From a virus, in UHGV virus genome UHGV-1356548: DNA of 64,000 nt. One strand, given 5' to 3'. Positions within the stretch are counted from its first letter, which is position 1, and every line of letters begins with the position of its first letter. The translations under genes and the position numbers were made by a program. The notes under the pieces were generated by a model. That model was not told the origin of the DNA. It made no database searches and saw only the letters and a program-made list of their open reading frames with translations. Below are positions 29,868 through 63,946 of the stretch, in pieces.

Positions 29868-29871
29868 AATT

Positions 29872-30163: not shown

Positions 30164-30260
30164 TATTGTTGACCTTGTAATTAAGCGAAAGCCGGAAGCA
30201 GAACCGGATTATCAAATGTTACAGTCGTCATCGCCGACTAGCAACATGGTCAACATACTG

Positions 30261-30359
30261 AGCTAGGTAAGCCCTTTGGCAAGGGCGAGGATTTTTAATC
30301 CTGAAAATAGACGAGGTAGTCGTTGAATACATAGGTGGTTCGATTCCATCACCTAGCAC
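30261..30359 (+). tRNA. atypical tRNA-like gene, Lys-type anticodon loop (UUU), oversized variable region
   Basis: Perfect 7-bp acceptor GCTAGGT/ACCTAGC, D-arm GCCC-TTTGGCAA-GGGC, anticodon arm AGGA-TTTTTAA-TCCT, T-arm GGTGG-TTCGATT-CCATC, but 32 nt (with its own GACGA-GGTAG-TCGTT hairpin) between anticodon and T arms; 3' end is CCT not CCA. Confidence 0.4.
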
Positions 30360-30364
30360 CTTTT

Positions 30365-30440
30365 TGCTGATGTAGCACAATTGGTAGTGCAATTGATTTG
30401 TAATCAATAGGTTGCAGGTTCAAGTCCTGCCATCAGCACC
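30365..30440 (+). tRNA. tRNA-Thr (anticodon UGU)
   Basis: Acceptor GCTGATG/CATCAGC, anticodon arm ATTGA-TTTGTAA-TCAAT, T-loop TTCAAGT, encoded CCA. Confidence 0.85.
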
Positions 30441-30441
30441 A

Positions 30442-30516
30442 TGGCCCTGTAGCTGGAAGGTTCAAGCAAGCGACTCATAATCGCCAGACGGTGGTTCAAT
30501 TCCACCCAGGGCCACC
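30442..30516 (+). tRNA. tRNA-Met (anticodon CAU; elongator or Ile-lysidine type)
   Basis: Acceptor GGCCCTG/CAGGGCC with G1-C72 pair, anticodon arm GCGA-CTCATAA-TCGC, T-loop TTCAATT, encoded CCA. Confidence 0.8.
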
Positions 30517-30527
30517 AAATAATAAAT

Positions 30528-30604
30528 ACTCCGCGTAGCTCAGCTTGGTAGAGCGCCTGATTTGGGATCAGGAGGTCGAGTGTTCGAATCACTCCGTGGA
30601 GACC
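30528..30604 (+). tRNA. tRNA-Pro (anticodon UGG)
   Basis: Acceptor CTCCGCG/CGTGGAG with the C1-G72 pair typical of bacterial tRNA-Pro, D-arm GCTC...GAGC, anticodon arm CCTGA-TTTGGGA-TCAGG, T-loop TTCGAAT, encoded CCA. Confidence 0.85.
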
Positions 30605-30650
30605 ACTTTCAGTTATACTTTAAACATATACAAACAAAAGGAACCTTTAA

Positions 30651-41029: not shown

Positions 41030-42406
41030 ATGCCATATTTAGATAAAGTGGTAGATGTTACAGTTAACCTCGGAACCCAGCCTATTGACACTGTAGGTTT
41101 CGAAACTCCCCTGTTCATCGCTATCCACAACAACTTTACTGAGCGAGCTCGCGTATATGCAGAGCTGGATCAGATGGTGGAAGATGGTTTCGCACAAGGC
41201 TCTGCAGCGTATGAGTTTGCAGCAAAAGCTTTTGGTGGTGTATTCCCTCCACAATACGTTATGATCGGCAGACAGGCCAAAGAAAAGACCACTGTAGATT
41301 TTAAAGGTATTGCTGCCGCAGCTGATACCGATGTCGTAATGACTATTGCAAAAGGTAGCTACAATACCTCTTTGATAGTCCCTATCTCTGGTGGAACAGC
41401 TGCAACTCAGATTGCAGAGTCAATGAAGACTAAAATCGAAGCAGATGATAACTTGGACGATATCACTGTAGAGGCTGCTGATGGTGTTATCACCATCACT
41501 GGTGACTGTACTGTTGGTTACCATACTGGTAACTATACAATCAAAAATATCGCCAATGCTGAAAAACCTTCTACAGTAGTTGATAAGATCAATGCTGAGC
41601 GTGACAATTGGTACTTCCTGTGCCATGAAGACCACACCGACATTGAAGCATGTGCTAAGTGGGCTCAGGCTAACTACAAGCTGCATGTCTACTCTACTGC
41701 AGAAGATGTGACTGGTAAAGATAATAACATCGCCACCAAACTGAAATCTGCACAATATGACAGTGTCGGCATGTACGATCCTCGTGCAGATAAGGACTTC
41801 CCGGAGGGTGGTATCATAGGTGCTATGGCATCCAACGATCCGTCTTACGGCGACAGCTTGCACTTAAAACAGATGCCAGGTGTGATTGCACCGTCTCTGA
41901 CTTTAACTCAGCGTATGGCTATTTGGGAAAACCACGTTAACTTCTACAGAATGATTAACGGTGTTGGCGCTTTCTGGGAAGGTAAGTGTGCTTCAGGTCA
42001 GTATGCAGACGCTATTCGTTTTGCACACTGGATCAAGTTCAGATCTGAAGAATCTATGTTTGGGTACATGCATCGTCGCTCCAACATGGGTTTAAGCATG
42101 AAGATGTCTGATGATGATCTTCCGGTTATCAAGTCTGTTCTGATGAACAACCCGATCAATACTGGCATTAAGAATGGCGCGATCCTGACAGGTTTTGACG
42201 AAGACAACAATGTGTTCTACGACCCGATCATCACAGTTCCTAAACGTGCAGAAATCCCAACCAATCAGTTGGCTGCTCGTGTTCTGGAAGGTGTGAAAGT
42301 AGAACTGGTGTATAACAACGCCCTGCACTTCGTTCGTATCCGGATCAACGTCCTTCTGGACAAAGTTGGTTCTAAATCCACCAATGCTGTTGCAATGACT
42401 GAATAA
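41030..42406 (+). CDS. major tail structural protein (sheath-like or large tube-class, undetermined)
   Basis: 458-aa ORF with high-expression codon usage, two genes upstream of the chaperone pair and tape measure; family cannot be decided by eye. Confidence 0.45.
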   Translation: MPYLDKVVDVTVNLGTQPIDTVGFETPLFIAIHNNFTERARVYAELDQMVEDGFAQGSAAYEFAAKAFGGVFPPQYVMIGRQAKEKTTVDFKGIAAAADTDVVMTIAKGSYNTSLIVPISGGTAATQIAESMKTKIEADDNLDDITVEAADGVITITGDCTVGYHTGNYTIKNIANAEKPSTVVDKINAERDNWYFLCHEDHTDIEACAKWAQANYKLHVYSTAEDVTGKDNNIATKLKSAQYDSVGMYDPRADKDFPEGGIIGAMASNDPSYGDSLHLKQMPGVIAPSLTLTQRMAIWENHVNFYRMINGVGAFWEGKCASGQYADAIRFAHWIKFRSEESMFGYMHRRSNMGLSMKMSDDDLPVIKSVLMNNPINTGIKNGAILTGFDEDNNVFYDPIITVPKRAEIPTNQLAARVLEGVKVELVYNNALHFVRIRINVLLDKVGSKSTNAVAMTE

Positions 42407-42416
42407 GGAAGCCTAG

Positions 42417-42890
42417 ATGGAAACTCAAATTTTAACTCCTTATGCGTATGACCCTAAAAAGGTCAAACTGTATCTGATGCAGCAGCGTGTCACTGGCTTC
42501 GCTGCTGACACCAAGATTGTTGTTTCAAGAAACGAAGACAACATTTATCCTCACGTTGGTGTGGATGGTGAAATGTCTGCAGCTCTGTCCCGTAACCAAT
42601 CTGGTGTTATGACTGTGTCTTTGCAGAACACTTCTGTATGGAACGCTTACCTTTCTGACTGGCAGAAACAGGCATCTATTACTGGCCTGGTATTCTTCCC
42701 GGTTCTGCTGGAAGGTAGCCAGGGCCCTGGTATTTCCACAATCGGTTGGATCCAGAAACAGCCTGACCTGACTTACGGAACCGAAGTAGGTCAACTGGAC
42801 TGGGATATCGGTATTCTGGATGCATGGCTCAACCGTGATAACATTACTGGTGCTCTCACTGGCCTCGCAGGTCTTGCAGGTATTATCTAA
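42417..42890 (+). CDS. tail tube-like protein (candidate)
   Basis: 157-aa ORF with high-expression codon usage, followed by a terminator and then the chaperone/tape-measure genes. Confidence 0.4.
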   Translation: METQILTPYAYDPKKVKLYLMQQRVTGFAADTKIVVSRNEDNIYPHVGVDGEMSAALSRNQSGVMTVSLQNTSVWNAYLSDWQKQASITGLVFFPVLLEGSQGPGISTIGWIQKQPDLTYGTEVGQLDWDIGILDAWLNRDNITGALTGLAGLAGII

Positions 42891-43840: not shown

Positions 43841-46177
43841 ATGGCTACAAACAAAATAGTTGCCACAACAGTCAACAAGATTGGCTTTGAGATAGAGAAC
43901 TCCTCCTACAAAAAAGCTGTAGAGAAAATTCGCAGTATTGGGAGGGAGTTCAGGAAACTGGGCGAAGATTTTAACTCAGCCAACCCCATGAGCAGATGGC
44001 AGGCGGTAGCTGTTAAAACCCAGCAGACAATGCAGCGGGTTGCCAGACAGCAATCTCAGGCAAATGCTAAACTGCACAGAGAGAGCGTAGCACAGGCCAA
44101 GAAAGAGGCTGCAGTAAGGGCTGCAATAGAACGTAGGGAGAATGCGAGACGTAAACAAGCTGTAGGTAATCTTACCGCTAAAAATCCAGAAATGGCTAGG
44201 ATGCGTAAGTTCTACCAGCAGCAAGCTAAAGAGGCCAAAAAGGCTGCCAAATCTGCACCAGTGTCTTACGGTGGTTATAAGGCACCTAAGGCAAGAGTTT
44301 TGGCTAATGCCAAATCTTTCAAATATATCCCCGGTAACCCTAATATGGGTGGTGTGGCTTCCGACCCTAACCTTGTGAAAGCTCAGACAGCCGCTATGAA
44401 TCGTTATCATAGACAGCTAAGAAGAGACAGTAAAGCTGGTATGGATAATAAGCTTATGTCGGATCGTGAGGCAAGGAGAACCCACCTCTACAACTCCGCG
44501 ATAAGACTTTCTGCCAAGTATGGGGCCGGATTCCGTGGAAGCTTACCAGGATACTCAGAGTTAGAGTCCAGGTTTGCTCGCGGGGAGATGAAGAAGTCAA
44601 CCTTTAACGCCCACCTGTCAGCGCTGCAGTCTGGGTTTAAAAGCGCCACCAGCCAAACGCTTACACTAGGCGATGCCATGAGAGACTTACGTAGATCTGT
44701 TATTAATGCAACAGCTGCGTATACGGCTTTTTCTGGATTTGCTGCGGTTAACAGATCCGGTCACATGATGGAGGGGGCAAGTGCTGCTCTTACTGCTGTT
44801 ACTGGAGATCCAAACAAAGCCAACAGTGAGGTTGCGTTTGTCCAGCAAGAGGCTATGCGTCTTGGTTTTGATCTCAAATCTGGTCTTCAAGGTTACGCCC
44901 AGATGTCGGTAAACGCCAAAAACCAGATGACAAATCAGGAAGTGCATGAGCTGTTTTCTGCATACTCACAGTATGCTGCTGCTTATGGTGCCGATGAGGT
45001 AAAATACCAGCGCGGTATTATGGCTATCCAACAGATGCTTGGCAAGGGACAAGTAATGTCCGAAGAACTGAAGCAACAACTTGCTGAAGCATTGCCCGGT
45101 GCATACGAACCTTTTATCAAGGCCACCAAAGAGGCTTTTGGTCTTTCTGAACTCTCCATGGATCAGTTCATGGACATGATGAAGAAAGGTGAGGTTAAAA
45201 CAGCCAAGATCATGAAGTATGTGGCTAAGTACATGAACGAGGCATCTGCAGCTGGTTATGAAAGAATGCAGAAGTCTAACGTGCTGGCAGAAAACAGACT
45301 GAAAACCTTCATCGAACTGACTCGTCAGAAACTGTTCACCCGTTGGTCCGACGAACTAACAGAGTTCTATTATACACTAATCCGCACTGGTGAGACTCTG
45401 CAATTTGTGTGGGATGCCTCTGGTGATTTTGTTAGCGGGTTTGTGAGAGGCCTTAACTGGGTAGTTGGTGAACTAAACAACACCATAGTCAAGATCCGCA
45501 TGTTTTTCCTTGAATGGGGGATTAAATGGGGATTCATAACAGCTAAGACGAAGGAATATTCTGAAGAGCTTCATGACACCTTTAGCTATGCTAAATGGGC
45601 AGGGTTTGCTGCTGCCATCATGCTGGTAGTCAATGCCCTAACAAAAGGTTTTGTCATGGCATCCATGCTTGTAAAAACCTTTAAATTCCTTAACTCTCTA
45701 AGGGGTGCAGCCGGAGCAGCGGGTGCCGCTACTACAGAAGGATCTGGTGGTGGAGCTCCGGCAGGAAAAGGTGGGGGTGGCCTCAAGACACCTGGTGGCA
45801 AAGTTGGTCTGCTCGGTAAGCTGGGCATTATCGGTACAATACTAAGCGCCGGGGAATTATTTAATGACCGTTACAACCCACTAAGTGAAAGAAATCAGCA
45901 GCTGGACACTATCAGCGATATGATTCGCAAAGATATCATATCGGGAGGTAACGGGTTTGTTAATCCTTTGGACACCTTACCGGGCGGGACTCTTCCGTTG
46001 CCGGGTGGCCCTGGTTTTGCTTCTCAATTAAGAACTATGGAAATGCTACCTTTAGAGATCAGTGATGGGAAAATCACGATTTCAATAGATGAGGGTGAGT
46101 TTAACAAAATATTTGATGCAAAACTTGAGTGGGAGAACAATAAAGATATCAACTTCATGTCTACCGACCTTTGGTAA
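43841..46177 (+). CDS. tail tape measure protein
   Basis: 778-aa ORF, extended helical/Ala-Lys-rich N-terminal half, Gly-rich hydrophobic segment (GGGAPAGKGGGGLKTPGGKVGLLGKLGIIGTILSAG); directly follows the chaperone pair. Confidence 0.75.
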   Translation: MATNKIVATTVNKIGFEIENSSYKKAVEKIRSIGREFRKLGEDFNSANPMSRWQAVAVKTQQTMQRVARQQSQANAKLHRESVAQAKKEAAVRAAIERRENARRKQAVGNLTAKNPEMARMRKFYQQQAKEAKKAAKSAPVSYGGYKAPKARVLANAKSFKYIPGNPNMGGVASDPNLVKAQTAAMNRYHRQLRRDSKAGMDNKLMSDREARRTHLYNSAIRLSAKYGAGFRGSLPGYSELESRFARGEMKKSTFNAHLSALQSGFKSATSQTLTLGDAMRDLRRSVINATAAYTAFSGFAAVNRSGHMMEGASAALTAVTGDPNKANSEVAFVQQEAMRLGFDLKSGLQGYAQMSVNAKNQMTNQEVHELFSAYSQYAAAYGADEVKYQRGIMAIQQMLGKGQVMSEELKQQLAEALPGAYEPFIKATKEAFGLSELSMDQFMDMMKKGEVKTAKIMKYVAKYMNEASAAGYERMQKSNVLAENRLKTFIELTRQKLFTRWSDELTEFYYTLIRTGETLQFVWDASGDFVSGFVRGLNWVVGELNNTIVKIRMFFLEWGIKWGFITAKTKEYSEELHDTFSYAKWAGFAAAIMLVVNALTKGFVMASMLVKTFKFLNSLRGAAGAAGAATTEGSGGGAPAGKGGGGLKTPGGKVGLLGKLGIIGTILSAGELFNDRYNPLSERNQQLDTISDMIRKDIISGGNGFVNPLDTLPGGTLPLPGGPGFASQLRTMEMLPLEISDGKITISIDEGEFNKIFDAKLEWENNKDINFMSTDLW

Positions 46178-49978: not shown

Positions 49979-50647
49979 ATGGCTGTAGCTTATCCTACAA
50001 TACCAATTCCAGATCTTGAAGATGCAGAAACAGTCCTGAGTGATGACTTCTTGGTTGTCAACCAGACTGATGGGACAAGAAAGGCTAAGATTGACGATGT
50101 TGTCAACGATCTTAGCATTACTAAGATAGTCTATTTCACAGAGGGTGGTTATCTTAAGAGCAAGAAGGACTTTGCTTATGATCCAGAAACTAAGCGCTAC
50201 TACACGTGGAACGGGGATTATCCTAAAATAATCCTCCCAGACTCCACTGTAGAGGGTGCTGGGGGTGTGTCTGCAAACGCCTGGTCTGTTTTTGGTGAGC
50301 TTGCTGCAACTTCTTCTGGCAGAATAGTTGATTACGGATCTATCGGTGGTCAGCTTGATATGGATCTTGAAGTTGCGGATACCTTTAAGGTTCGACTAAC
50401 TTCAAATACCACAATCTCTTTTGAAAATCAAACAGAAGGTCTTGAAGGGGTGGCGAGAACTATAACCGTATGCATTACTCAGACCTCTGGCGGCAACAAA
50501 GTCTATTGGCCTGGTAATGTTAAATGGTCCTACGGAAGAGATCCTATCCTAACATTTACAGCTGGTGCAACAGACATTTTCAAGTTGGAAACCTACGACA
50601 ACGGGTTAACTTGGTACGGGGCATTGATTATCGCAGGAGCTATCTAA
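49979..50647 (+). CDS. tail fiber-related protein sharing N-terminal anchor motif with the long tail fiber
   Basis: N-terminus (DDFLVVNQTDGTRKAKIDDVVNDL) parallels the N-terminus of the 53283 product (DDYLVVQQPDLTRRVKIGDVVHV). Confidence 0.4.
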   Translation: MAVAYPTIPIPDLEDAETVLSDDFLVVNQTDGTRKAKIDDVVNDLSITKIVYFTEGGYLKSKKDFAYDPETKRYYTWNGDYPKIILPDSTVEGAGGVSANAWSVFGELAATSSGRIVDYGSIGGQLDMDLEVADTFKVRLTSNTTISFENQTEGLEGVARTITVCITQTSGGNKVYWPGNVKWSYGRDPILTFTAGATDIFKLETYDNGLTWYGALIIAGAI

Positions 50648-53282: not shown

Positions 53283-56200
53283 ATGGCTGATATTAAAGTT
53301 GTCAGAATTGAATCTCTTCCTGCCACTACCGCAGTGACAGAGGATGATTACCTGGTTGTTCAACAACCAGACCTGACCCGTCGTGTAAAAATTGGCGATG
53401 TTGTCCATGTTGATGGGACTGTTTCTCATGTAATCTCCTTTAAGGAAGGTGGTAAGTTAAACGGCCCAATGGATTTTGCCTACTTCGAAGAGGAAGACCT
53501 CTACCTACGTTGGAAAGGCGAATTTCCGCACACTGTTCCTGCACTGTCTTCACCGTACTCCGATGGTGGGATCACTGATGCTGCATGGATGGTATATACT
53601 GACCCGTCCTTAAGGGAGGAGCTGGAATCTACCATTGGCGCATCTATGATCATGACAGCCGAAGGGCAGTCTGTCCAGGATGTAATGGATGTTACTGTTC
53701 AGACAGCTAACGATGCCAAAGCACTTGCACAGCGTGTAGATTTTGGTACAGTGCACACTGTAGGCGATGTTATTCACCTTGATAACTTTGTTGGCCCTGC
53801 AGTTATTGAAGAGGGAAGAACTACCAACTACCCTTCTGTAGCAGCTGGTGAAAAATTTCTGAACGGTGTGGTATCTCGTCGTGATACTACAACTGTTGAT
53901 GGTATTTTCCGTGGCGCTACCACCGGAGCCATGTACACCATTGCAGTAACCAACGGTGTAGCAACAACGAAAAGAATAGCACTTCGTGATGAATTTAAAC
54001 GCCTAGAGGCAAACAACCCAACAAGAACAGTTATCCGTGCTGGAGATGATTTAAATACGGCAGGGTACTTGCAGCTTGATGCAACAGGCCGTTGGGGTAT
54101 GTGGAACCAACAAACAGCTTCGTGGCAACCTCTTGCTATAGAGCAAGGCGGCACAGGGGCTAGAGATGCCGCTGGAGTCCGTATCAATATCGGTGCTTTC
54201 TATAAGCAACGTGCAGCCCTTGAGCCAAATTTCAATATCAATAACTTGACTGGTAATCAGGATGGTGTATACTACCAGCCGATGACTGCTTATGCAACTG
54301 AGGCAAATGGTTACCCTGCAGGTTCTGGTGCTGGTCACTTGATTGTCTGGCAGAACAATGCTAACGGCGGTACAGGTTGTCGTCAGGAATACTATCCATT
54401 CTCTAACGTAGATGTTTGGTATTTGAGAACCTATCAGGCCAACACAAATCAGTGGACTGCATGGCAGCCGATGGTCAGACCTCGTAACGATGATACCTTT
54501 AGATCGCACATCGGTCTCGGGTCTAGAAATACCCCTACCTTCGGGCACCTTTACCTATCTCAAAGCACTTCTGAGGTTAAGTCTCCATCAGGTATTCTCC
54601 ATGGGGATAAATACGGCGCTGACGGTGTCCTTGAGCATGGGTATAGGATCTACTCTGAGGTAAGAAACGACAATAAGGCTTGGTTGACAATCCACCTGCA
54701 CAAAGGCGCAAAAGGATCTGAAACTCATAGCTATTTAGGCTTCCGTGAGGATGGGGTCTTAGATTGTCCTAAATATATGCAGGTTGGTGATCTGAACGGT
54801 CAGCTGGCAAACTGGGGACTTGGAGAGTGGATCCGTAGTTCAGGGGCAGAAAGAGGCTTCTGGGGGTCCAAGAAAGCCGCCAAGATGGTTGTCTGGGATG
54901 GCGGTATGGACGAGCAAGGTGAAGGAACGCTTGAATGGGGTGTTTATAACAACCGGAAGGCCAAGTGGGAACCTCTACCTCAAGCCGCAGGTGGCACTGG
55001 GGCTACAACTTTAGCAGATGCTCAGAATCTGTTCAAAGTTCCTATAGCAGCAGGTGTAAAAGACTTCTTAACACTGCCAAGAACCGCAGGGATGGAAGAT
55101 GGGAAATACTACCCAATCATCGTTAGAACAGATCCGTATTACGCCCCTTCGACAGGTACAGATATTACTATAGTCACCAGGTCTTCATCTGGAAATGACC
55201 CTATGAACTGTGCGACCTTACAGTGTCACTATAGAACTGGTGGTTGGACAGACAGAGGAGACTCTTTCTACGGGGTAGTAAATTTCTACCAGAATGAAAA
55301 AGCACTTCTTGGGATGGTTGCTCCAACAAGGGGTAAACAAGAATATGTTGCTTTCTATGCAGAGGCGCGTGCTTTCCCTGTCAGCATATACGCAAGTAGA
55401 AATGTTGTCGAGGTGTTTACCAGGGAGCAAGATTACCAGGTTGGCTCTGTAACAGACAATCAGGACGGTGTTAAGTTCGTTGCACCTCTCCAGTCAGCAG
55501 ATTTGAATCTTGCTGTTCTTGGAGATAATAATACCAACACCAGACCTATTGTTGACTTCAAAGGGACTTCAGGGTTCTACACTGGTGGCGGCACACAGTG
55601 GCACTATATAGGCACTGCTGAACGCTATGCTGTGATGAGCAAAATGAATATGCCAAAAGTCGAGCTATGGGCAGACGGTCTTAACTATTTGTGCTACGGC
55701 AGTCCTAGAAAGGCGTTATTCTCTAATGCAGGCTTCCAGTGTGCATCAGATGGGACAGAGGATCTGACTAACGGTACGTTTACCTCTAAATGCGGTAATG
55801 GTGCTGGTCTCAAAGGACAGGCAGAGTTCAGATCTACTCCAGAGGCTGGTCAAGTTATTGTTCGTGATGTTGTAGGTTCTGCTCACAAATTCTACAACTT
55901 CAACAAAGATGGCACTTTCTCAGCTCCTGGTGGTTTTGTATGCCACACAGGTGCAGACTGGAACAACCAGTTCGGAAATAACAACCCTTCTAAAATAATG
56001 GCTGGTAACGTCAACGGACCTGAAGGTTCCATGGTTGTAGCAGGGTTGTCGGTTGGTTTTTCTGGAAACTACGCTTTCCAGATGGCAGGTCGTTTAGACC
56101 AGCTGTACACTCGTTCCATAGAGCAGGGAAACCACAGAGCGTGGAACAAAGTTATTCAGCACCGTGGTCAAGGGTTGGGAACTAATGACCTTAACGACTA

Positions 56201-57083
56201 CAAAGGGGATAGAGAGGGTTTTTATCACCAAGAGGCCAATGCTCAGGCCACTCCGGAGAGAAACTACCCTTGTGCTCAGGCAGGTACACTTATTGTGTAC
56301 AGGAATTACGCCAACGTGCCTGAGAGCTGTGTGCAGGAATATGTATCATATCTTGGGGAAAAATTCCTGCGTTATGGAACAACAATAGGTAGTGTTTTCA
56401 CATGGGGACCTTGGCAGCAGCTTGGTGGCAAAGGGATCACTTTGAAAACTCAAGGTTCGAATCTTGACCCAGAGTTTATAATCCACACTGGCGGCGGAGC
56501 TACTGTTGGCAACAGTTCCAACATACCTGCTAATACAGGTAGGTTATATTATTGGGGCAATGGTGCAGACCGGAAGAATGTGCTTGAGTTCCAGATAAGT
56601 GATAACTCAACACTCTCCAACTGGGTATTCCATTGCGGGGCCAAGACAGATGAGGCCAAATCAAGATATTTTGCTGTCAATGGTGCAGTAGAATGCACCA
56701 CTGTTAGTCAAAGTTCTGACCGTGACCTGAAGGATAATATCGAGGTCATACCTAACGCTGTAGAAGCTATCCGGAAGATGAAAGGCTATACCTATACTTT
56801 AAAAGAGAATGGTATGCCTTACGCAGGGGTAATTGCTCAAGAAGTTATGGAAGCATTACCAGAAGCGGTTGGGTCTTTCGTGCAAAGGAAAGAGGTTCCA
56901 GGGCCTACTCAAGACGGCACCCCTCTGATGACTGAGGAAAGATTCTATAACGTTGACTATGCAGCTGTAACAGGCTTGCTTGTCCAGGTTTGCAGGGAAC
57001 AGGACGATAAAATAACCGCCCTTGAGGAGCAGGTTAAAAAATTGACAGAGGTTGTTACTGGGTTGCAAGAGAAACTGAAGTAA
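53283..57083 (+). CDS. long tail fiber with C-terminal S74-type intramolecular chaperone (autoproteolytic) domain
   Basis: 1266 aa; C-terminal SDRDLKDNIEV...GVIAQEV...coiled-coil signature of endosialidase/L-shaped-fiber chaperone domains; internal duplicated module (GHLIVWQNNANGGTGCRQEYYPF / GTLIVYRNYANVPESCVQEYVSY). Confidence 0.75.
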   Translation: MADIKVVRIESLPATTAVTEDDYLVVQQPDLTRRVKIGDVVHVDGTVSHVISFKEGGKLNGPMDFAYFEEEDLYLRWKGEFPHTVPALSSPYSDGGITDAAWMVYTDPSLREELESTIGASMIMTAEGQSVQDVMDVTVQTANDAKALAQRVDFGTVHTVGDVIHLDNFVGPAVIEEGRTTNYPSVAAGEKFLNGVVSRRDTTTVDGIFRGATTGAMYTIAVTNGVATTKRIALRDEFKRLEANNPTRTVIRAGDDLNTAGYLQLDATGRWGMWNQQTASWQPLAIEQGGTGARDAAGVRINIGAFYKQRAALEPNFNINNLTGNQDGVYYQPMTAYATEANGYPAGSGAGHLIVWQNNANGGTGCRQEYYPFSNVDVWYLRTYQANTNQWTAWQPMVRPRNDDTFRSHIGLGSRNTPTFGHLYLSQSTSEVKSPSGILHGDKYGADGVLEHGYRIYSEVRNDNKAWLTIHLHKGAKGSETHSYLGFREDGVLDCPKYMQVGDLNGQLANWGLGEWIRSSGAERGFWGSKKAAKMVVWDGGMDEQGEGTLEWGVYNNRKAKWEPLPQAAGGTGATTLADAQNLFKVPIAAGVKDFLTLPRTAGMEDGKYYPIIVRTDPYYAPSTGTDITIVTRSSSGNDPMNCATLQCHYRTGGWTDRGDSFYGVVNFYQNEKALLGMVAPTRGKQEYVAFYAEARAFPVSIYASRNVVEVFTREQDYQVGSVTDNQDGVKFVAPLQSADLNLAVLGDNNTNTRPIVDFKGTSGFYTGGGTQWHYIGTAERYAVMSKMNMPKVELWADGLNYLCYGSPRKALFSNAGFQCASDGTEDLTNGTFTSKCGNGAGLKGQAEFRSTPEAGQVIVRDVVGSAHKFYNFNKDGTFSAPGGFVCHTGADWNNQFGNNNPSKIMAGNVNGPEGSMVVAGLSVGFSGNYAFQMAGRLDQLYTRSIEQGNHRAWNKVIQHRGQGLGTNDLNDYKGDREGFYHQEANAQATPERNYPCAQAGTLIVYRNYANVPESCVQEYVSYLGEKFLRYGTTIGSVFTWGPWQQLGGKGITLKTQGSNLDPEFIIHTGGGATVGNSSNIPANTGRLYYWGNGADRKNVLEFQISDNSTLSNWVFHCGAKTDEAKSRYFAVNGAVECTTVSQSSDRDLKDNIEVIPNAVEAIRKMKGYTYTLKENGMPYAGVIAQEVMEALPEAVGSFVQRKEVPGPTQDGTPLMTEERFYNVDYAAVTGLLVQVCREQDDKITALEEQVKKLTEVVTGLQEKLK

Positions 57084-57090
57084 CTGTTTT

Positions 57091-57118
57091 GCCCTCGCTT
57101 CGGCGGGGGCTTTTTGTT
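57091..57118 (+). terminator. rho-independent terminator
   Basis: GCCCTCGC-TTCG-GCGGGGGC hairpin followed by TTTTT. Confidence 0.65.
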
Positions 57119-57122
57119 TGTA

Positions 57123-57151
57123 TTGCGTATTAACTCAAAATCTGGTAAAAT
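57123..57151 (+). promoter_or_regulatory. sigma70-like promoter with extended -10 (TGgTAAAAT)
   Basis: TTGCGT, 17-bp spacer ending TGG, TAAAAT. Confidence 0.5.
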
Positions 57152-57182
57152 AACTATCATGATTGTTTAACCTGGAGGCACA

Positions 57183-57773
57183 ATGTTTTTATGGGAAAGG
57201 CCTAGATACCTTCCAGATATTAGATTGGAGCTGCTGGCAGATATTGTTACGTTTAAAAGTCCGTTTACAGGTAAAACGCAAAAAGTAACCTATGCCACAC
57301 CTAACTGGAAAGGCACTTTGACGGTCTCCAATATCAGCGAGTCACAGTTGCTAGAGCTTAAGAGCTTTGTTGATCAGGTGTATAAAGATGGGAACATCTT
57401 TCTTATTAAAACTTACGGTCACTCTGTAACAGCTAACGAGCCAATCGCCCTTGGGCCTACTGGTAACGACGATTTTTTGAAGACGGTCGGGTGGGAGCCA
57501 AACAGAGACATAGCCAGAGCTGGTGATAAAATATCTGTGAACGATGAGTTGAAAGTGGTAACAGCTCCAGTGCGTAGTGATGGTGTTGGGTCTGCTGTTA
57601 TAGGCATATCTCCAAGACTTAGAAAACCTATTGCCGCAGGGGACACCATGAAGATAATAACTCAATCTCCGAAGGGTAGGTTTCATATCAGAGATATTTA
57701 TAAAATTAAGCAAAAAGTCGATGCTATGCAAAAAGGTGATAATATAGTTATCAACTTCTTTGAGGATTTTTAA
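57183..57773 (+). CDS. minor tail protein (candidate)
   Basis: 196-aa ORF opening the operon that ends with the J-like gene. Confidence 0.35.
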   Translation: MFLWERPRYLPDIRLELLADIVTFKSPFTGKTQKVTYATPNWKGTLTVSNISESQLLELKSFVDQVYKDGNIFLIKTYGHSVTANEPIALGPTGNDDFLKTVGWEPNRDIARAGDKISVNDELKVVTAPVRSDGVGSAVIGISPRLRKPIAAGDTMKIITQSPKGRFHIRDIYKIKQKVDAMQKGDNIVINFFEDF

Positions 57774-57774
57774 G

Positions 57775-58326
57775 ATGATCAGAGCGCCATTAGATAATTT
57801 ATTTCTTGAAAAGCTGGAGCTTGATGGTGTTGAGATCTTAATTGCTGCAAAGCTGGAGCTACCGACAGGAACTGTCAGAGTGTGCTCAGGCACTGGTGTT
57901 GTAGTAATTGAGGGGCAACATTTTATAGGGATAGGTGGATCAGCAACATTAACTGCTGTGTCTGAGAAAGATGCCACCAACTTCGGATCTGTGGTAGCAA
58001 CATTAAACGGGTTTGATCCCAAGTATGTGGGTGATCTGCTGAAGACGGAGTATTCTGGTTGTCGTGCCACGTTGTACATTACCGCTATGGAGAATGGTCT
58101 ACCTGTTACAACTAATGGCTTGTTTGACGGACTTATAACAGATATGGCTATTCAGACAGGTGAGAATAGTGCTTTGTCCATATCCATCTCTTCCATCTTC
58201 AACAGCTGGTTAAGAGGTTTTCCTTATCGGTACACGGAGGAAAGCCACAGCTCAAGAAACGATAATGACAGATTTTTTAAATATGTGGATCAGGTGGCGA
58301 GCCGCCCGATCATTTGGGAGGTTTAA
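57775..58326 (+). CDS. minor tail protein (candidate)
   Basis: Start at ATG 57775 right after the previous stop; 183 aa. Confidence 0.35.
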   Translation: MIRAPLDNLFLEKLELDGVEILIAAKLELPTGTVRVCSGTGVVVIEGQHFIGIGGSATLTAVSEKDATNFGSVVATLNGFDPKYVGDLLKTEYSGCRATLYITAMENGLPVTTNGLFDGLITDMAIQTGENSALSISISSIFNSWLRGFPYRYTEESHSSRNDNDRFFKYVDQVASRPIIWEV

Positions 58327-58751
58327 TGAGCACACACCCTCGTTTAGTGGATTGGCAAGAAAGATTGTGGAGAGTGTTTGACGAAGAGGCCACCATACCT
58401 TTTGAATGGGGATTCCACGATTGCTGCACCTTTGCAGCTAAGTGTGTTGATGCCCAATACGGAACAGATTTTCTTTCTAACTTCGAAGGAACGTATAAAA
58501 CAGAGTTGGAAAGCAAAAGATGGTGCATGCTCCGTTTCAAAACCACACACCTGCCTACTATTTTTGATCTCTTTATGACTCGACTAGATACTCCTAAACA
58601 GGTTCAGCGTGGCGATATTGTTATCTTCGAAGGTCTGAACGGGCTCACCGCTGGTGTGTTCTGGAACAACCAGATTTGGGCGAAAGGTGATAAAGGGGTC
58701 TTTATGTTCGACATGAAAGATTCTATCGTTGTTGATGTCTGGAGGTATTAA
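58326..58751 (+). CDS. minor tail protein (candidate, Cys/His-containing)
   Basis: Start ATG overlapping previous stop (TAATG); WGFHDCCTF segment; 141 aa. Confidence 0.35.
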   Translation: MSTHPRLVDWQERLWRVFDEEATIPFEWGFHDCCTFAAKCVDAQYGTDFLSNFEGTYKTELESKRWCMLRFKTTHLPTIFDLFMTRLDTPKQVQRGDIVIFEGLNGLTAGVFWNNQIWAKGDKGVFMFDMKDSIVVDVWRY

Positions 58752-61700
58752 TGCCAATTGCAATGATTGATAACATCGTTGCTTCTGCAAGATCTTCAAG
58801 TTATGACTGGAACGCATCCAAGGCAGCTCTGGCTGACAGCCTGAACACTGTTACCACCAGAACTCTGGATAAGATTTTTGAGGGCAACAAATCTTACAGA
58901 AGTCAGCAAGATAGACAAAAGCTTCTCAGATCTTCTGCTGCACCCTGCTCTGTAGTGTATGGGAAGACACGCACGTCTGGACTGCTTGCGTTTTTGGAGC
59001 AGGACAGAGACAGAACCCTCCATTGTGCCATTGTTCTTGCTAATCATCCTCTGGAAGGTATAGAGGACATACTCATCGACGGTAATCCTATTTCCTCGTA
59101 TGGAGATCTGGTATCGTGGGAGCTACATAACGACAGAAAAACATCTGATCCTTTCATGGGTACACACTGCCCATCATGGTCACCTGACATGATAGGTAGA
59201 GGGATCAGTTGGCTACGTGCCAGCTTCAGGTTTGACCCTAACAAGTTTCCTTTTGGGTTGCCAAACGTTACACTCGTTAAGGTTGGTAAAAAATGCTATG
59301 ATCCTCGCATCAGTAAAGAGGTGTATACCAATAACGCGGCCTTGGTGATTCTAGACTATTTAAGAACGTACCTTAAATGTCCTGACGAAACCATCAACTG
59401 GGAGTCCTTCAAGGAGGCTGCTAACATATGCGACGAGGCGGTAAAAAACGCAGACGGAACCAGTGAGCGCCGATACACCATTAATGGCGAGTTTGACATG
59501 GACGAGGCTCCGGCAAGCATTATGGCAGAGATGCTGAAAGCTTGTGGCGCAGATCTCAGCTATGTAGCTGGTAAGTATGGTTTGCTGGTTGGTGCATACT
59601 ATGGCCCGGCAACAATGACGCTGAGTGAGGATTGTGTCTGTGGTGAGGTCAAGATCTATCCGGAAGCCTCATTTGACAAAAGATCCAACACAATAACTGG
59701 CAGATTCACTAGTCCGACCAAAGGGTATTCTGAAACAGATTTTCCATCAGTGTTTGTCCCAGAGTGGATAGGGAAGGATGGAGAAAGAAAGATAATCGAT
59801 ATAGACTATCGCTTTGTTACCAGTCCTTATCAAGCTCAACGTGTTTCTGCAATCTTCCTAAGACGTGCCAGAGCTGGCAGGATTATTGAAGTCACCTGCA
59901 ATATGCGAGGTTTCAAATTTAAACCTGGTCGTTACGTTACAATGGACCTCCCAAGTATTGGTATAGTAGGCCAAGAAATGAGAGTTCTTGAATGGGAGTT
60001 TACCAAAAAGGGTGGTGTCAAGGTAAAACTTCGTCAAGATGCTAAAGAGTGGAATGATGCCACAGGGCAACTTCCGGATTCTGGCGATGTAGATATTCCG
60101 ATATCTCCATCTGGTGTAGCTCAACCGCAAAACTTCAGATATTCCGTTCTCCAAGCTGGAGAAGTAACTCACGGTGTTTTGGCTTGGGACAACGTTGGGA
60201 CTTATGCTCAAAACATTGTGCAGGTCAGGAAAAACGGAGAGATTGTCTGGACAGCGCAGACAGTTGAGCAGTTTGTCCGTGTTGAAGGTCTGACTAAAGG
60301 TTCCTACACAGCCACTGTTGTTGCAACATCTTATAAAGGTGGTGTATCTCCAGAAGCATACTGTGAGTTTAACATTCAGGCACCTGAGGCTCCGGTTTCT
60401 GTAGAAGTTAAACAGGGATACTTTGCTATTACCCTGATCCCGCATAGCAGAGCCTTGGCCAGTGTAAGCACCCAATATGACTTTTGGACATCTGGGATGA
60501 CAAGATTGCCAGATACCAGTGATGCAACCGTTACTTCAAAAGCCACTCGTATGGGTGTTGGTTCAACTTGGACATCTGAAGGTCTGCAGAACGATAAGAT
60601 TTATTATTGGTATATCAGGACAACAAATGCTTTTGGTTCATCTGCTTTTGTGGAGTGTGCAGCCCACTGTTACACATCCATAGAAGATCTTATGCCGCAG
60701 ATTGATGCTGAGTTCAAAAAGACAGAGACTTATAAAGAGCTTACCGCCAATCTCGATAATGCAGTCAAGGAAATGGATAAAAATGTTGGTGCAGTCAATG
60801 ACCGTGTTACTAGCATTTTTGAAGAGCTTGGAGATACAATAGAGGGTGTTGTCAGAGAGACGACAGAAAAATTTACAGGGGTTAATGGAGAAATTTCTGC
60901 CCTTAACAGTAAGCTGGTAGCAGCTCAGCAATCCTTTGACGATAAACTTGCAGCAGAGTCTGGTAGGCTTGGGTCACTAATCGAGACAACAAATAGATCA
61001 ACCGTTGATCTTGTTAATCGTAAAACTCAAGCATTGAGTGAGCAAATAACTGCAACTCAAGGTACTCTGCGGGAAGAGTTGAAGAACACTGAGAGCAAAC
61101 TTAACTCCTCTATTCAAGAAACCAACAAGGCAACAACCGACCTGCTAAATAAGACAACGGAAGCTATTAAGCAGGATCTGGTGGCAGCTACAGGGAAGAT
61201 CACCAAGCTGGAAGATGATGTGCAGAAAGAGGTTGCCAATCTGCAAGCATCTATTCAAGAAACTAATAGTACAACAGTTGATCTTGTTAATAATACAGCC
61301 ACAGCGATCCGTCAAGAACTTACCTCTGCAAAACAAGAAATTGTTGACGAAATGGGTAATATTGATGAGCTTAGGGCTACAGTATCTAATACCTCTAAAG
61401 CTGTAACAACACTTGAGGGTAAAATAGATGCTCAGTGGGGGGCTAAGATTCAGGTTGACAGCCATGGTAATAAATATGTGGCAGGTATCCAGCTGGGCAT
61501 GGAGGGGTCTGGAGGACAAGTTCAATCATACTTTATGGTTAGTGCAAACAACTTTGCGGTGTACAACCCTGGTAACGGCACAGCAACCCTTGCTTTCGCA
61601 ATCAAGAATAACCAAGCGTTCTTGAAAGACGCTTTTATAGAGAATGGCACGATCTCCTCTGCCAAGATCGCACAAGAAATTTCGTCAAACAACTACGATA

Positions 61701-62350
61701 GCAACGGGTACCATAACTACGGTTGGTATATTAACAAGAACGGGCACGCCCAATTTATGGATGTGTGGGTGAAAGGTAACATCAACGCCAGTTCTGGTAA
61801 CTTCACAGGGGCAGTTAACGCCACCAGTGGTACCTTCCGTGGTGATGTTTATGCCAATAATGGTAGCTTTAGAGGCACCATAGATGCAACCGGAGGTACC
61901 TTCCGTGGTCGTGTAGAAGCTTCTGTTATCCGTGCTAACCAGTTCGAAGGTGCGATTGTTGCACACAGGACTTACGGAGATTGTGCTCCAGTATATAACT
62001 CCCGGCAAAGGGTTTGCCGTTGGAGGTGGAGATACGTAGATAACGTTTCAGGTCAGGGTAAGAACGTAACATTCTTCTTTAAACTGAACGGTACTCTTGC
62101 CAGCTCCCAACTGAATGCATGGATAGCTGGTCATCAGATCCTTGCTGGCAAGAAGTATTTTAACGACAACAACGGCATGTGTGCGGTAGGGATAACAGGT
62201 CTGGGTGAACAAACTATAGACATTGTTATCGAGATTTACACACCGTGGTCAACGTCGAGCGTGACAGGTGTCACAATCTCCTGTCCCACTGTGATCGTTA
62301 GTCGTTCTAACTCAAGCTTCCAGGGACCTTGGAACGAGTCTCACGACTAA
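58751..62350 (+). CDS. host-specificity / central tail fiber protein, lambda J-like
   Basis: 1199 aa; several blocks align by eye to lambda gpJ (GYFAITLIPH vs GYFQITATPH; IRTTNAFGSSAFVE vs IRSVNTVGKSAFVE; KYVAGIQLGMEG vs HYVAGIGLSMED; YFMVSANNFAVYNPGNG vs QFLVAANRIAFIDPANG); C-terminal about 150 aa diverge. Confidence 0.7.
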   Translation: MPIAMIDNIVASARSSSYDWNASKAALADSLNTVTTRTLDKIFEGNKSYRSQQDRQKLLRSSAAPCSVVYGKTRTSGLLAFLEQDRDRTLHCAIVLANHPLEGIEDILIDGNPISSYGDLVSWELHNDRKTSDPFMGTHCPSWSPDMIGRGISWLRASFRFDPNKFPFGLPNVTLVKVGKKCYDPRISKEVYTNNAALVILDYLRTYLKCPDETINWESFKEAANICDEAVKNADGTSERRYTINGEFDMDEAPASIMAEMLKACGADLSYVAGKYGLLVGAYYGPATMTLSEDCVCGEVKIYPEASFDKRSNTITGRFTSPTKGYSETDFPSVFVPEWIGKDGERKIIDIDYRFVTSPYQAQRVSAIFLRRARAGRIIEVTCNMRGFKFKPGRYVTMDLPSIGIVGQEMRVLEWEFTKKGGVKVKLRQDAKEWNDATGQLPDSGDVDIPISPSGVAQPQNFRYSVLQAGEVTHGVLAWDNVGTYAQNIVQVRKNGEIVWTAQTVEQFVRVEGLTKGSYTATVVATSYKGGVSPEAYCEFNIQAPEAPVSVEVKQGYFAITLIPHSRALASVSTQYDFWTSGMTRLPDTSDATVTSKATRMGVGSTWTSEGLQNDKIYYWYIRTTNAFGSSAFVECAAHCYTSIEDLMPQIDAEFKKTETYKELTANLDNAVKEMDKNVGAVNDRVTSIFEELGDTIEGVVRETTEKFTGVNGEISALNSKLVAAQQSFDDKLAAESGRLGSLIETTNRSTVDLVNRKTQALSEQITATQGTLREELKNTESKLNSSIQETNKATTDLLNKTTEAIKQDLVAATGKITKLEDDVQKEVANLQASIQETNSTTVDLVNNTATAIRQELTSAKQEIVDEMGNIDELRATVSNTSKAVTTLEGKIDAQWGAKIQVDSHGNKYVAGIQLGMEGSGGQVQSYFMVSANNFAVYNPGNGTATLAFAIKNNQAFLKDAFIENGTISSAKIAQEISSNNYDSNGYHNYGWYINKNGHAQFMDVWVKGNINASSGNFTGAVNATSGTFRGDVYANNGSFRGTIDATGGTFRGRVEASVIRANQFEGAIVAHRTYGDCAPVYNSRQRVCRWRWRYVDNVSGQGKNVTFFFKLNGTLASSQLNAWIAGHQILAGKKYFNDNNGMCAVGITGLGEQTIDIVIEIYTPWSTSSVTGVTISCPTVIVSRSNSSFQGPWNESHD

Positions 62351-62359
62351 CCTTTAAAG

Positions 62360-62386
62360 CCCCGCTTCGGCGGGGTTTATTTTTAT
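62360..62386 (+). terminator. rho-independent terminator
   Basis: CCCCGC-TTCG-GCGGGG hairpin followed by TTTATTTTTAT. Confidence 0.7.
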
Positions 62387-62393
62387 GCTCAGA

Positions 62394-62422
62394 TTGACTA
62401 TTGTTACAAAATTTGGTAAAAT
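62394..62422 (+). promoter_or_regulatory. sigma70-like promoter with extended -10 (TGgTAAAAT)
   Basis: TTGACT, 17-bp spacer ending TGG, TAAAAT; followed by GGAGGA RBS and a GTG start at 62456. Confidence 0.5.
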
Positions 62423-62455
62423 ACCTTGTAGAGATTTTCATACCGGAGGAGTGAC

Positions 62456-63946
62456 GTGGCTAAGTATGGATTGACAGAGGCTGGTTTCGTTATACCAACC
62501 CTAAATGACCTAATCGTTGAAACTAAGCAAAGCCTGATCCGTGCTTTTGGCGAAAACTTCAACGTACAGAGTAACTCCGTTGCAGATAAGCTGACCACTA
62601 TCTTCAACGAGCGAGAGTATCAACTTATTCTTATGGCAGCATCTGTATACGCATCACAGACGCTGTATGGGGCAGAAGGTATTTACCTAGATGAGCTTCT
62701 TGGAAGACAGGGTATTTACCGAAGAGGCCGTTCTAAATCATCAGGTACCTGCCAGTTGACAATCAACACAACTGTGCCGTACAATATGATTTATGATTCC
62801 AAAACTTATACGCTGGACAGTGGCAACTTTGTTCTTAGCAACGATGTGCAAGTAGCAGGGAATCTTATTGCTCACAGAATAAATGCTCCAGACCTAAGGA
62901 TTGGGAAATACAACTTCCAAATTACCAACCAGACAGATGGAAGTATCAAAACAAAAAGCCTGGTTTTAACAGATAAGTCTCTGGACTCTTCTGATTTGCC
63001 AAGCTTTTACGGAGAGATTAAGCAATTCATTGTCGATAATACAACCCTGTTGAACGACGATTTGATTCAGATCGATATGTTGACAGGAACGTTGTGGATA
63101 GGGTACAATTCGAATCTTGATCAAGTTGGGCTTAACAGCAGGGTAGATTTCAGAGTATCCCCGATTGTAGGGGAAAGAACTATCACACTGGATGTTATCG
63201 CTAACGAGGCTGGTGAGCTGTCAAGAGAAGCAGAAACCGTGACAACAATGTCACCTACTCCTAGTGGATTTATCAAGCTTACCAACCGAGAAAGATTCAA
63301 TGAGGGCAGGGATGTTGAGAAAGACTCAGAGTATCGCTTAAGAGCTTCCAGCACAAAACAGTTAACATCTAAGGCTACCCGTCCTGCAATCCTTAGCGCT
63401 GTAAGCGAGGTGAAAGGTGTTGAGAAAGTGAGAGTGTTCTCCAACAACACCGATAAAACTGATGCTAAAGGTATACCTCCTTACAAGTTCCAAGTGGTTG
63501 TGTTTGGTGGTGCAACGGAAGACATTTGCCAAGCACTTTACCAAACTATAGCCTGTACGAACAGGACTTATGGTAATATTTTCTACGATGTCACTACATC
63601 TGACGGTCAAACTGAAAGAATTTATTACTCCAAGGCAAACACCTACCGCCTGGATATGAGAATTACCTACTCCGGTGCTGCGCTTTCTACAACCGAAAAA
63701 GATGCCATTATAGAGGCTCTTTTGCAGGTTGTTAACGGACTGGATGTTGCAGATACGTTGTATAATATCCAATTGGTAGGTGCTGCATCTGCTGCTGTGT
63801 CAATAGGCAGATTTAATAGACTGGTAATTCAAGTTAAATCCGTAGGAGCTTCTGATGAAGCTTACACTACAAACGATATTGTTGCGAACATGACCGAGGT
63901 GTTTGACCTCGACGAAAGTAATATAACTTTCCAACAAACTATTTAA
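62456..63946 (+). CDS. hypothetical tail protein
   Basis: 496-aa ORF after the J-like gene. Confidence 0.35.
   Translation: MAKYGLTEAGFVIPTLNDLIVETKQSLIRAFGENFNVQSNSVADKLTTIFNEREYQLILMAASVYASQTLYGAEGIYLDELLGRQGIYRRGRSKSSGTCQLTINTTVPYNMIYDSKTYTLDSGNFVLSNDVQVAGNLIAHRINAPDLRIGKYNFQITNQTDGSIKTKSLVLTDKSLDSSDLPSFYGEIKQFIVDNTTLLNDDLIQIDMLTGTLWIGYNSNLDQVGLNSRVDFRVSPIVGERTITLDVIANEAGELSREAETVTTMSPTPSGFIKLTNRERFNEGRDVEKDSEYRLRASSTKQLTSKATRPAILSAVSEVKGVEKVRVFSNNTDKTDAKGIPPYKFQVVVFGGATEDICQALYQTIACTNRTYGNIFYDVTTSDGQTERIYYSKANTYRLDMRITYSGAALSTTEKDAIIEALLQVVNGLDVADTLYNIQLVGAASAAVSIGRFNRLVIQVKSVGASDEAYTTNDIVANMTEVFDLDESNITFQQTI

Follow-up and report, generated by a model that had tools for sequence, protein, structure and literature searches.

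Four adjacent genes at positions 57183 to 62350 of a 64,000-nucleotide stretch of the virus genome UHGV-1356548 (the whole of which is referred to as the window) encode three small proteins and a protein resembling phage lambda gpJ, and they are named A, B, C, and J here in gene order. On balance, we favor the interpretation that these genes are a captured siphovirus tail-tip cassette, which in this contractile-tailed phage of the genus Vequintavirus makes an accessory host-binding fiber and not the tail's own hub. The homology of the four proteins, their collinearity with siphovirus tail tips, the genus-specific position of the cassette, the existence of a native hub apart from it, and the constraint on the genes were all established in this analysis, and the presence of the J homolog in virions comes from the published work on phage rV5.

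Homology of the cassette proteins

An initial annotation made from the sequence alone described the 1,199-amino-acid (aa) product of the J gene (58751 to 62350, plus strand) as aligning in blocks with lambda gpJ while having an unrelated C-terminal segment, and BLASTP comparison bore this out: residues 498 to 669 align with gpJ residues 667 to 836 at 31% identity and residues 891 to 1046 with gpJ residues 858 to 990 at 30% identity (E about 1e-17 for each), and past residue 1046, over the last ~150 residues, nothing aligned with gpJ. Two Pfam families were matched above their gathering scores (Ig_J_second, E = 2.5e-30; Phage_Tail_Tip [PF09327, DUF1983], E = 2e-38), Ig_J reached 24.4 bits, under its 29-bit cutoff, and the protein also matched lambda J in the PDB (8iyk, E = 2e-27) and, over residues 143 to 1055, the family phrog_31, "central tail fiber J" (E = 2e-164). 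A family profile of 25 sequences covering residues 1 to 660 matched residues 229 to 485 of T1 J (total E = 2e-40), residues 147 to 481 of lambda J, and residues 266 to 836 of T5/DT57C pb3 (E about 1e-34), and in this search hub proteins ranked ahead of many fibronectin type III (FN3) proteins. The best Foldseek match of an AlphaFold2 model of the protein (pLDDT 79.5, with residues 1 to 63 of low confidence or disordered) was the lambda tail tip (E = 1.5e-36), with DT57C and T5 pb3, T1, JBD30, Chi, and the RcGTA particle (6tba) among the further top matches. Profile and model agree in showing that the J-like protein carries a true tail-tip hub beyond its FN3 repeats. The refuting outcome named in the initial annotation, J-like blocks that are generic FN3 repeats and nothing else, is ruled out by the Foldseek result and by the profile search, in which T1 J, lambda J, and T5 pb3 were all matched in their hub parts.

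Along the protein, residues 1 to 450 (58751 to 60100) comprise the siphovirus tail-tip hub domains identified by profile, model, and Foldseek, and residues ~455 to 652 (60113 to 60706) comprise two immunoglobulin-like (Ig)/FN3 domains, Ig_J and Ig_J_second, which are indicated by Pfam, by the lambda alignment, and by beta-sandwich strands in the model. These are followed at residues ~655 to 890 (60713 to 61420) by a putative alpha-helical shaft, which matches the helical Pfam families ApoLp-III and Apolipoprotein and has no proline in 236 residues, whereas its lambda counterpart has only ~20 residues. Residues ~878 to 1057 (61382 to 61921) hold the Phage_Tail_Tip domain, supported by PF09327 and the lambda alignment, and then a G-x-F-x-G beta-helix repeat, and residues 1058 to 1199 (61922 to 62350, stop codon included) form a globular domain at the C terminus that has no relation to the domain with which lambda J binds LamB; all of these segments are on the plus strand. 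J proteins of Vequintaviruses are 1,199, 1,279 (rV5), and 1,381 aa long, and the shaft is the sole part that varies, in both length and sequence; we looked for tandem DNA repeats beneath the variable coiled coil and found none. The hub and the last 300 residues are 92 to 100% conserved among Vequintaviruses, as is the C-terminal domain in ~120 Vequintavirus records, and outside the genus this domain has just 29 to 31% similarity to the J tips of Nonagvirus. A PDB sequence search with residues 1030 to 1199 returned no matches. The conservation of the tip domain suggests a conserved ligand or docking role (for the J tips of Queuovirinae, binding to another phage protein has been proposed), and judging from the sequence, it is plausible that J uses a receptor other than LamB.

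Single-sequence PDB searches with A, B, and C yielded no matches, and family profiles were required. The product of gene A (57183 to 57773, plus strand; 196 aa) matches phrog_1302, "distal tail protein," with an E value of 5e-50, and its family profile matches the distal tail protein (Dit) of DT57C (8hqz_H; E = 9.2e-5, profile positions 24 to 135) and T5 pb9 (0.07). One gene A homolog matches the Pfam family DTP-pb9_B-dom (8e-4) and one weakly matches DUF2460; the gene that comes first after the tape measure of Seuratvirus Skure, and likewise its counterpart in a Proteus prophage, is 34% identical to gene A itself. These profile matches identify gene A as a probable T5 pb9-type Dit. A relation between lambda gpM and the gene A family was not detected with hhalign, where a profile was compared to a single sequence; this design was imposed by the lambda loci in IMG/VR, since all 80 loci available for M/L/K family alignments are 98 to 100% identical to lambda.

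Gene B (57775 to 58326, plus strand) encodes 183 aa when read from the GenBank ATG, and an upstream TTG would give 188 aa. A word-indexed homolog search with gene B alone found close copies only, and an exhaustive search found a family of 627 clusters at 50% identity. The protein matches phrog_2048 (E = 8e-68) and is 40% identical to the product of the second gene after the tape measure in Skure; profiles of its family match residues 16 to 179 of T5 pb3 (E = 1.3e-7 with 13 sequences and 1.2e-8 with 127 sequences), and 12 of 127 relatives match the Pfam family PF09931, "Baseplate hub protein, N-terminal attachment domain." B and J thus jointly span pb3 residues 16 to 179 and 266 to 836. The T1 structure paper describes the hub protein of lambda and T1 (gpL type) together with the central fiber protein as topologically equivalent to pb3 (PMC11945409), and because B and J cover pb3 as gpL and gpJ do, B falls in the gpL position. 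We therefore read gene B, from its profiles, as a putative hub N-terminal attachment-domain protein that is the gpL equivalent by position. At the sequence level, lambda gpL and the gene B family gave an hhalign probability of 0.07, gpL was not among the PDB profile matches of gene B (the only one of this kind was the phage Chi hub-1 protein, E = 0.55), and neither the 13- nor the 127-sequence alignment has a conserved Cys column that would correspond to the C-terminal Fe-S cysteine cluster of gpL; gene B ends right after a conserved Trp. Five relatives of gene B (P0157, P0164, P0166, P0228, and P0259) are longer, at 320 to 490 aa, with the B domain at the C terminus and, in P0259, a partial second B domain; none of their N-terminal extensions matched the Dit profile of gene A, a match that would have been fusion evidence for contact between A and B.

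Gene C (58326 to 58751, plus strand; 141 aa) is spanned end to end by the Pfam family DUF6950 (E = 4e-33), on which a search of the literature found no papers. Its Proteus homolog scores 22.1 bits on NLPC_P60, below the cutoff of 23, lambda gpK weakly matches DUF6950 at the Cys motif, and hhalign aligned the Cys motif of gene C with gpK residues 57 to 80 (E = 0.049). D32 and C33 are invariant in the DUF6950 family alignment, in which no conserved His for a catalytic triad was found. These similarities indicate that gene C may be distantly related to the NlpC/P60 part of gpK. The JAB/MPN domain was not found in gene C, whereas lambda gpK shows Prok-JAB; a single-sequence AlphaFold2 model of the C product had a pLDDT of 41.6 and was discarded. 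Between C and J, which overlap in TAATG, there is no room for a gpI-like gene, and BLAST of the cassette proteins against lambda M, L, K, and I showed no similarity. The proposal that the small genes are reminiscent of lambda L/K/I is accordingly to be replaced by a Dit, a protein in the gpL position, and a K-like DUF6950 protein, with no gpI and no sequence relation to M or L.

The native contractile tail

In a nucleotide database search, the 5.2-kb block of the cassette was 100% identical to Escherichia phage I29 (ON286975.1) and 90 to 99% identical to 118 further records, nearly all from E. coli phages of the genus Vequintavirus (rV5-like myoviruses). Membership in this genus follows from the near-identity to sequenced members and from the conserved order of sheath, tube, and baseplate genes, and synteny is shared with the annotated relatives Mangalyan, DrSchubert/Bas50, and rV5. 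In these relatives the order is sheath, tube, chaperones, tape measure, tube initiator, plug, hub, spike, sheath initiator, three fiber genes, the cassette, wedge genes, and further fibers. The window likewise has a native tube initiator, plug, hub, P2-gpV-like spike, and sheath initiator, all 3' of the tape measure (43841 to 46177), and the baseplate wedge gene (Baseplate_J; 62456 to 63946, plus strand) directly follows the cassette.

The 458-aa protein at 41030 to 42406, described at first as a major tail protein of unusual size, is the sheath of the tail (phrog_205, E = 1e-117), with the 157-aa protein at 42417 to 42890 as the tube; the question of sheath versus tube posed in the initial annotation is thereby answered, and a lambda-like siphovirus with an oversized major tail protein is ruled out. 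Other parts of that description held: two large fiber genes (865 and 1,266 aa) and baseplate genes do intervene between the tape measure and the cassette, and the distance of 12 kb given for J agrees with a J gene that begins 12.6 kb past the end of the tape measure, the cassette itself being ~11 kb away. The lambda frame in which these distances were discussed was mistaken, in that the phage, a Vequintavirus, has a contractile tail, for which it encodes a tube initiator, plug, hub, spike, sheath initiator, and wedge of its own. Because the tail has its own hub, spike, and sheath, the J-like protein cannot be read as a tail tip in the lambda sense. In the solved baseplate of phi92, the homologous proteins are on the axis and there is no J-like component (PMC13450770).

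Layout and predicted transcription of the cassette

The four open reading frames (ORFs) have the coordinates originally described. A and B meet in TAAgATG, B and C as well as C and J overlap in TAATG, and a GGAGG-like site precedes each start; from these abutting or overlapping junctions and ribosome-binding-like sites, the four genes are predicted to be translationally coupled. Upstream, the cassette is bounded by an intrinsic-terminator-like hairpin on the plus strand at 57091 to 57110 (GCCCTCGCTTCGGCGGGGGC followed by TTTTT; 8 pairs, 7 of them G-C), which closes the preceding 1,266-aa fiber gene and corresponds to terminator t041 (-19.8 kcal/mol) in Table S4 of the rV5 paper. It is followed at 57122 to 57152 (plus strand) by a putative late promoter consisting of ATTG, 17 nucleotides (nt), and TGGTAAAATA (57143 to 57152), which reads as an extended -10 element and is listed as late promoter P040 in the same table. 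The exact TGGTAAAATA decamer occurs four times in the 64-kb window, always intergenic and 5' of plus-strand genes, and the promoter layout recurs upstream of 39494, 43053, and 62456; with one mismatch allowed there are 20 matches where 6.1 are expected, a number reached in 0 of 100 shuffles. A terminator-like hairpin at 62357 to 62378 (plus strand; 9 pairs, 6 of them G-C, with an ATTTTT tail) forms the downstream boundary. Beyond it, outside the cassette, the native order resumes with the promoter of the next unit (62394 to 62423, plus strand; TTGACT, 17 nt, TG-n-TAAAAT), which is predicted to drive the wedge gene and is late promoter P036 in the rV5 paper. These predicted signals support the cassette as a promoter-to-terminator unit of its own, as the initial annotation had proposed.

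The two flanking intergenic units resemble each other. After each terminator come ATTG, 17 to 18 nt, TGGTAAAATA, ~25 nt, GGAGG, and a start codon, and the units at 57084 to 57182 and 62351 to 62455 are 68% identical (71 matching bases versus 55 ± 3 after shuffling), with a common layout of a GCTTCGGC-loop hairpin, a T-run, ATTG, TGGTAAAATA, and GGAGG. Seunavirus SPLA5a, which has no cassette, has one such terminator-promoter unit (11887 to 12000), directly 5' of the wedge gene. To judge from this arrangement, the unit may have been duplicated upon insertion of the cassette. We also observed that the wedge gene of the Salmonella phage SPLA5a has an apparent start at ~11990, ~300 nt upstream of the annotated 12298: a GTG there comes after AGAGGAGG and leads into codons that align with the start of the I29 wedge gene.

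Origin and distribution of the cassette

The closest relatives of the cassette outside the genus are in siphoviruses, where the four genes directly follow the tape measure. The J hub region is 56% identical to J of Seuratvirus and 50% identical to J of phage 9g. Directly behind the tape measure of Seuratvirus Skure lie genes of 182, 194, 138, and 1,005 aa, to which A, B, C, and J are 34%, 40%, 44%, and 56% identical, respectively, and a Proteus mirabilis prophage whose head is of the HK97 type has the same order of tape measure, A, B, C, and J. Of the 80 IMG/VR loci recovered, the 77 from outside Vequintavirus have this order as well, and it recurs, with occasional insertions, in phages of Pseudomonas, Roseobacter, Paracoccus, Acinetobacter, and Vibrio and also in many marine siphoviruses. 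As early as 2006, the GenBank record of rV5 remarked that ORFs 40 to 37 resemble consecutive genes of the Yersinia siphovirus PY54.

Among related myoviruses, the loci of a Seunavirus, a phAPEC8/phi92-like phage, Klebsiella phage P8734, and Serratia phage ChuuTotoro are free of the cassette, with the fiber genes adjoining the wedge gene, and tblastn with A, B, C, and J found no match in these four syntenic loci. In a database-wide tblastn search, every match above 60% identity was a Vequintavirus or a "Campylobacter phage" record, and the other matches listed were in siphovirus-sized genomes, except for low-coverage matches in 120-kb Vibrio phages. By these comparisons, the cassette is best read as a putative insertion in the Vequintavirus lineage. 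The view that the tail module is mosaic is in line with this, the cassette being of siphovirus origin and missing from the syntenic locus of sister myoviruses.

Some loci depart from the common order. In Acinetobacter phage IMEAB3 (652 to 3363), a 903-aa gene sits between Dit and B, and in Pelagibacter phage HTVC026P (3143 to 4303), an extra 76-aa gene does so; the C slot of HTVC026P is filled by a protein annotated as an acyltransferase, which failed to align with the DUF6950 family. The Proteus mirabilis prophage has a YebO-family gene between B and C (9079 to 9540), which looks like a moron inside the tail-tip operon. At two Salmonella enterica loci (L004 and L005, 10001 to 15760), a J-related gene (771 aa) stands by itself, with none of Dit, B, and C upstream; behind it come DUF6453, Phage_tail_C_2, and a Tox-PLDMTX toxin-domain gene, with integrases adjacent, and the whole looks like a prophage remnant or an island that has kept only the fiber end.

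Selection and virion data

The four ORFs are intact in ~117 genomes at 90 to 100% nucleotide identity. Ratios of nonsynonymous to synonymous substitution (dN/dS), computed against rV5 (92 to 98% nucleotide identity), were 0.022 for A, 0 for B (which has no nonsynonymous changes), 0.023 for C, 0.029 for the J hub, and 0.068 for the J C terminus, compared to 0.025 for the wedge gene. All four cassette genes are under strong purifying selection. In the rV5 paper, gp37, the J homolog, is among the proteins detected by virion mass spectrometry, and occasional thin fibers of ~70 nm are described.

Other features of the window

A Tail_spike_N (TSP1/gp66) N-terminal adaptor domain is present in both a 222-aa protein (49979 to 50647) and the 1,266-aa fiber (53283 to 57083), the latter of which ends in a Peptidase_S74 chaperone domain. 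The common adaptor domain suggests a branched fiber attachment, which presumably recalls that of CBA120- or G7C-type phages. Seven tRNA genes (Arg, Tyr, Ser, Thr, Met, and Pro) are clustered at 29793 to 30605, and within this cluster a 99-nt tRNA-like call at 30262 to 30360 has a four-base anticodon (atcc). At ~25000 to 26000, the GC skew goes from about -0.1 to about +0.1, a sign change that marks the switch from the minus- to the plus-strand coding module. Finally, 18 GenBank records of the MG0656xx series, which are labeled "Campylobacter phage" and give C. jejuni as the host, have 90% or more identity to E. coli Vequintaviruses across the block, and those listed in the tblastn search matched at 94 to 99.6%; these records are probably mislabeled or contaminant assemblies.

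Discussion

The scenario that we envisage begins with a Vequintavirus ancestor, which would have acquired the cassette from a siphovirus like Seuratvirus, Nonagvirus, or PY54 and inserted it between the last large lateral-fiber gene and the baseplate wedge gene. The four translationally coupled genes would be transcribed late from their own promoter between two terminators. By analogy with siphovirus tip architecture, a J trimer and a B trimer would form a pb3-like hub, the Dit ring would cap this hub, and C would act during assembly or be present at low copy number. With neither tape measure nor tube, the complex would be a stand-alone extra long adhesin mounted on the myovirus particle, composed of a hub head, two Ig domains, a variable coiled-coil shaft, a beta-helix, and a conserved tip domain; its reach would be set by the length of the shaft, and it would not be a channel-forming tail tip. 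A more specific version, which we put forward tentatively, is that the particle carries an autonomous tip complex of Dit ring, split hub, and J fiber, probably in several copies at the baseplate periphery, with the Dit ring retargeted, and that the ~70-nm fibers of rV5 are these complexes. In the papers searched, we found no description of an architecture in which a tail tip is used as a fiber.

Several observations weigh against the idea of an accessory fiber built from the whole cassette. The rV5 paper does not mention the homologs of A, B, and C (gp38 to gp40) when it names virion proteins, which leaves a complete complex of Dit and hub in the particle as a prediction. Cryo-electron microscopy of two Vequintaviruses placed three proximal fibers of nine annotated, none of which was assigned to J (PMC12143355), and no structure or labeling supports any one position of J on the particle; nor does a hexameric Dit ring have an obvious docking partner at the baseplate periphery. 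Genetic screens on K-12 identified the ECA/NGR polysaccharide and lipopolysaccharide-core glucose as Vequintavirus receptors and ascribed them to other fibers, and no role for a J fiber surfaced in those screens. The promoter and the terminators, too, are predictions from sequence.

In one alternative, J alone is a structural fiber, with its hub-like head on the baseplate, and A to C serve as chaperones or factors in assembly and are discarded or present in traces. This would account for gp37 being the sole cassette homolog named among the detected rV5 virion proteins, and the tight translational coupling would suit stoichiometric coassembly helpers; C, moreover, belongs to a peptidase-like family whose lambda counterpart works in assembly, and lambda gpK is often described as a discarded or trace assembly factor. 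We nevertheless hold this alternative to be unlikely, though it is the one to be taken most seriously. Small proteins are easily missed in shotgun mass spectrometry reporting only 19 proteins, A and B are constrained as strongly as the wedge protein, and B supplies the pb3-like hub part that is missing from J. Where siphovirus tips have been solved, both Dit and the gpL-type hub protein belong to the structure in stoichiometric amounts (PMC11945409). That the J-like protein is instead the central tail tip or hub, as in lambda, is suggested by its homology to gpJ hubs and by the database labels "central tail fiber J" and "tip attachment protein J," but we give this next to no credence: a sheath, a tube, and, after the tape measure, the tail's own tube initiator, plug, hub, and P2-gpV-like spike are present, the homologous phi92 baseplate was solved with those proteins on the axis and without J, and sister genera make tails without the cassette. 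An axial position for J is contradicted by the native hub and spike and by the cassette-free sister genera.

It is also improbable, in our judgment, that the complex is located at the neck, the collar, or a capsid vertex or that it is mainly an accessory for cell wall degradation or penetration acting through C. In principle, neck rings of six- or twelve-fold symmetry could offer a docking site to a six-fold Dit ring, and the phi92 study likens some of its fiber candidates to the head spike protein of phage Pa223, but there is no evidence for any neck, collar, or vertex site, and the cassette lies within the baseplate and fiber gene cluster behind a late promoter of the same type. With regard to a penetration role, C retains the invariant Asp-Cys of NlpC/P60 enzymes, yet the DUF6950 family has no conserved His for a catalytic triad. 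Finally, the cassette is dispensable in sister genera and has no assigned receptor phenotype, as might be expected of a nonfunctional relic or a selfish passenger; the intact ORFs in ~117 genomes, dN/dS values of 0 to 0.07, a predicted late promoter with coupled translation, and a J homolog in virions make this explanation highly implausible, and a decaying relic is contradicted by the selection data.

The likeness of this protein to J is already known from GenBank annotations and from the 2013 rV5 paper, and according to the BASEL paper, the assignment of genes to the many Vequintavirus fibers is unclear. A literature search on the cassette as such, including "distal tail protein" together with Vequintavirinae, found no paper, and the reading of the whole cassette as a siphovirus tip reused in a myovirus appears to be unpublished. 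Few groups of E. coli phages are isolated more often than Vequintaviruses, which are also candidates for therapy; reading the cassette as a whole tip provides a concrete, testable assignment for four genes and one fiber and predicts a stoichiometric A6:B3:J3 complex. If this reading is correct, a multiprotein tail organelle has moved between tail morphotypes and has changed its role from a channel-forming tip to an accessory adhesin, and it would provide a natural scaffold with a variable shaft length and a fixed head and tip.

Comparison with known systems

The closest known counterparts are in the Queuovirinae (Seuratvirus, with Seurat and Skure, and Nonagvirus, with 9g and JenK1), in PY54, and in related prophages, which have the same four homologous genes in the same order. 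In the Queuovirinae siphoviruses the cassette comes directly after the tape measure and is the only tail tip, whereas here it is separated from the tape measure and belongs to a myovirus that has a hub already. In the Queuovirinae, J is followed by a receptor-binding-protein locus, and no receptor-binding-protein genes follow it here; the coiled-coil shaft is longer than in Queuovirinae J proteins and varies in length, and the tip domain at the C terminus of Nonagvirus J is weakly similar to the tip described here.

Lambda J and the J protein of the cassette have a common hub fold together with Ig_J, Ig_J_second, and Phage_Tail_Tip, and the lambda tip has a like architecture of a Dit ring and then a hub split into a small protein and J. 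The two differ in that no relation between A and gpM or between B and gpL is detectable, B is without the gpL cysteine cluster, C is without the JAB/MPN half of gpK, and there is no gpI; furthermore, the shaft is ~220 aa compared to ~20 aa in lambda J, and the C-terminal domain is unrelated to the LamB binder. Among solved structures, T5 and DT57C provide the best matches for A (pb9) and for B and J together (pb3), but the T5 hub is one polypeptide with a separate fiber (pb4) and receptor binder (pb5), while in the cassette a hub in two pieces is fused to a fiber of its own. The RcGTA particle (6tba) is among the structural matches of the J hub, although the relation is remote; its g12 to g15 (Dit, hub, NlpC/P60 peptidase, and megatron) presumably follow the same four-gene logic, and it is without a long J-type fiber.

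With the multifiber apparatus of phi92- and rV5-type phages, the cassette shares its genomic neighborhood and late expression, so that it would be one more member of the fiber set. Phi92-like and Seunavirus phages are without a siphovirus hub module at the syntenic loci. The other fibers of this apparatus are tailspike- or fiber-type trimers with glycosidase, deacetylase, or S74 domains, in contrast to the complete siphovirus hub module of the cassette.

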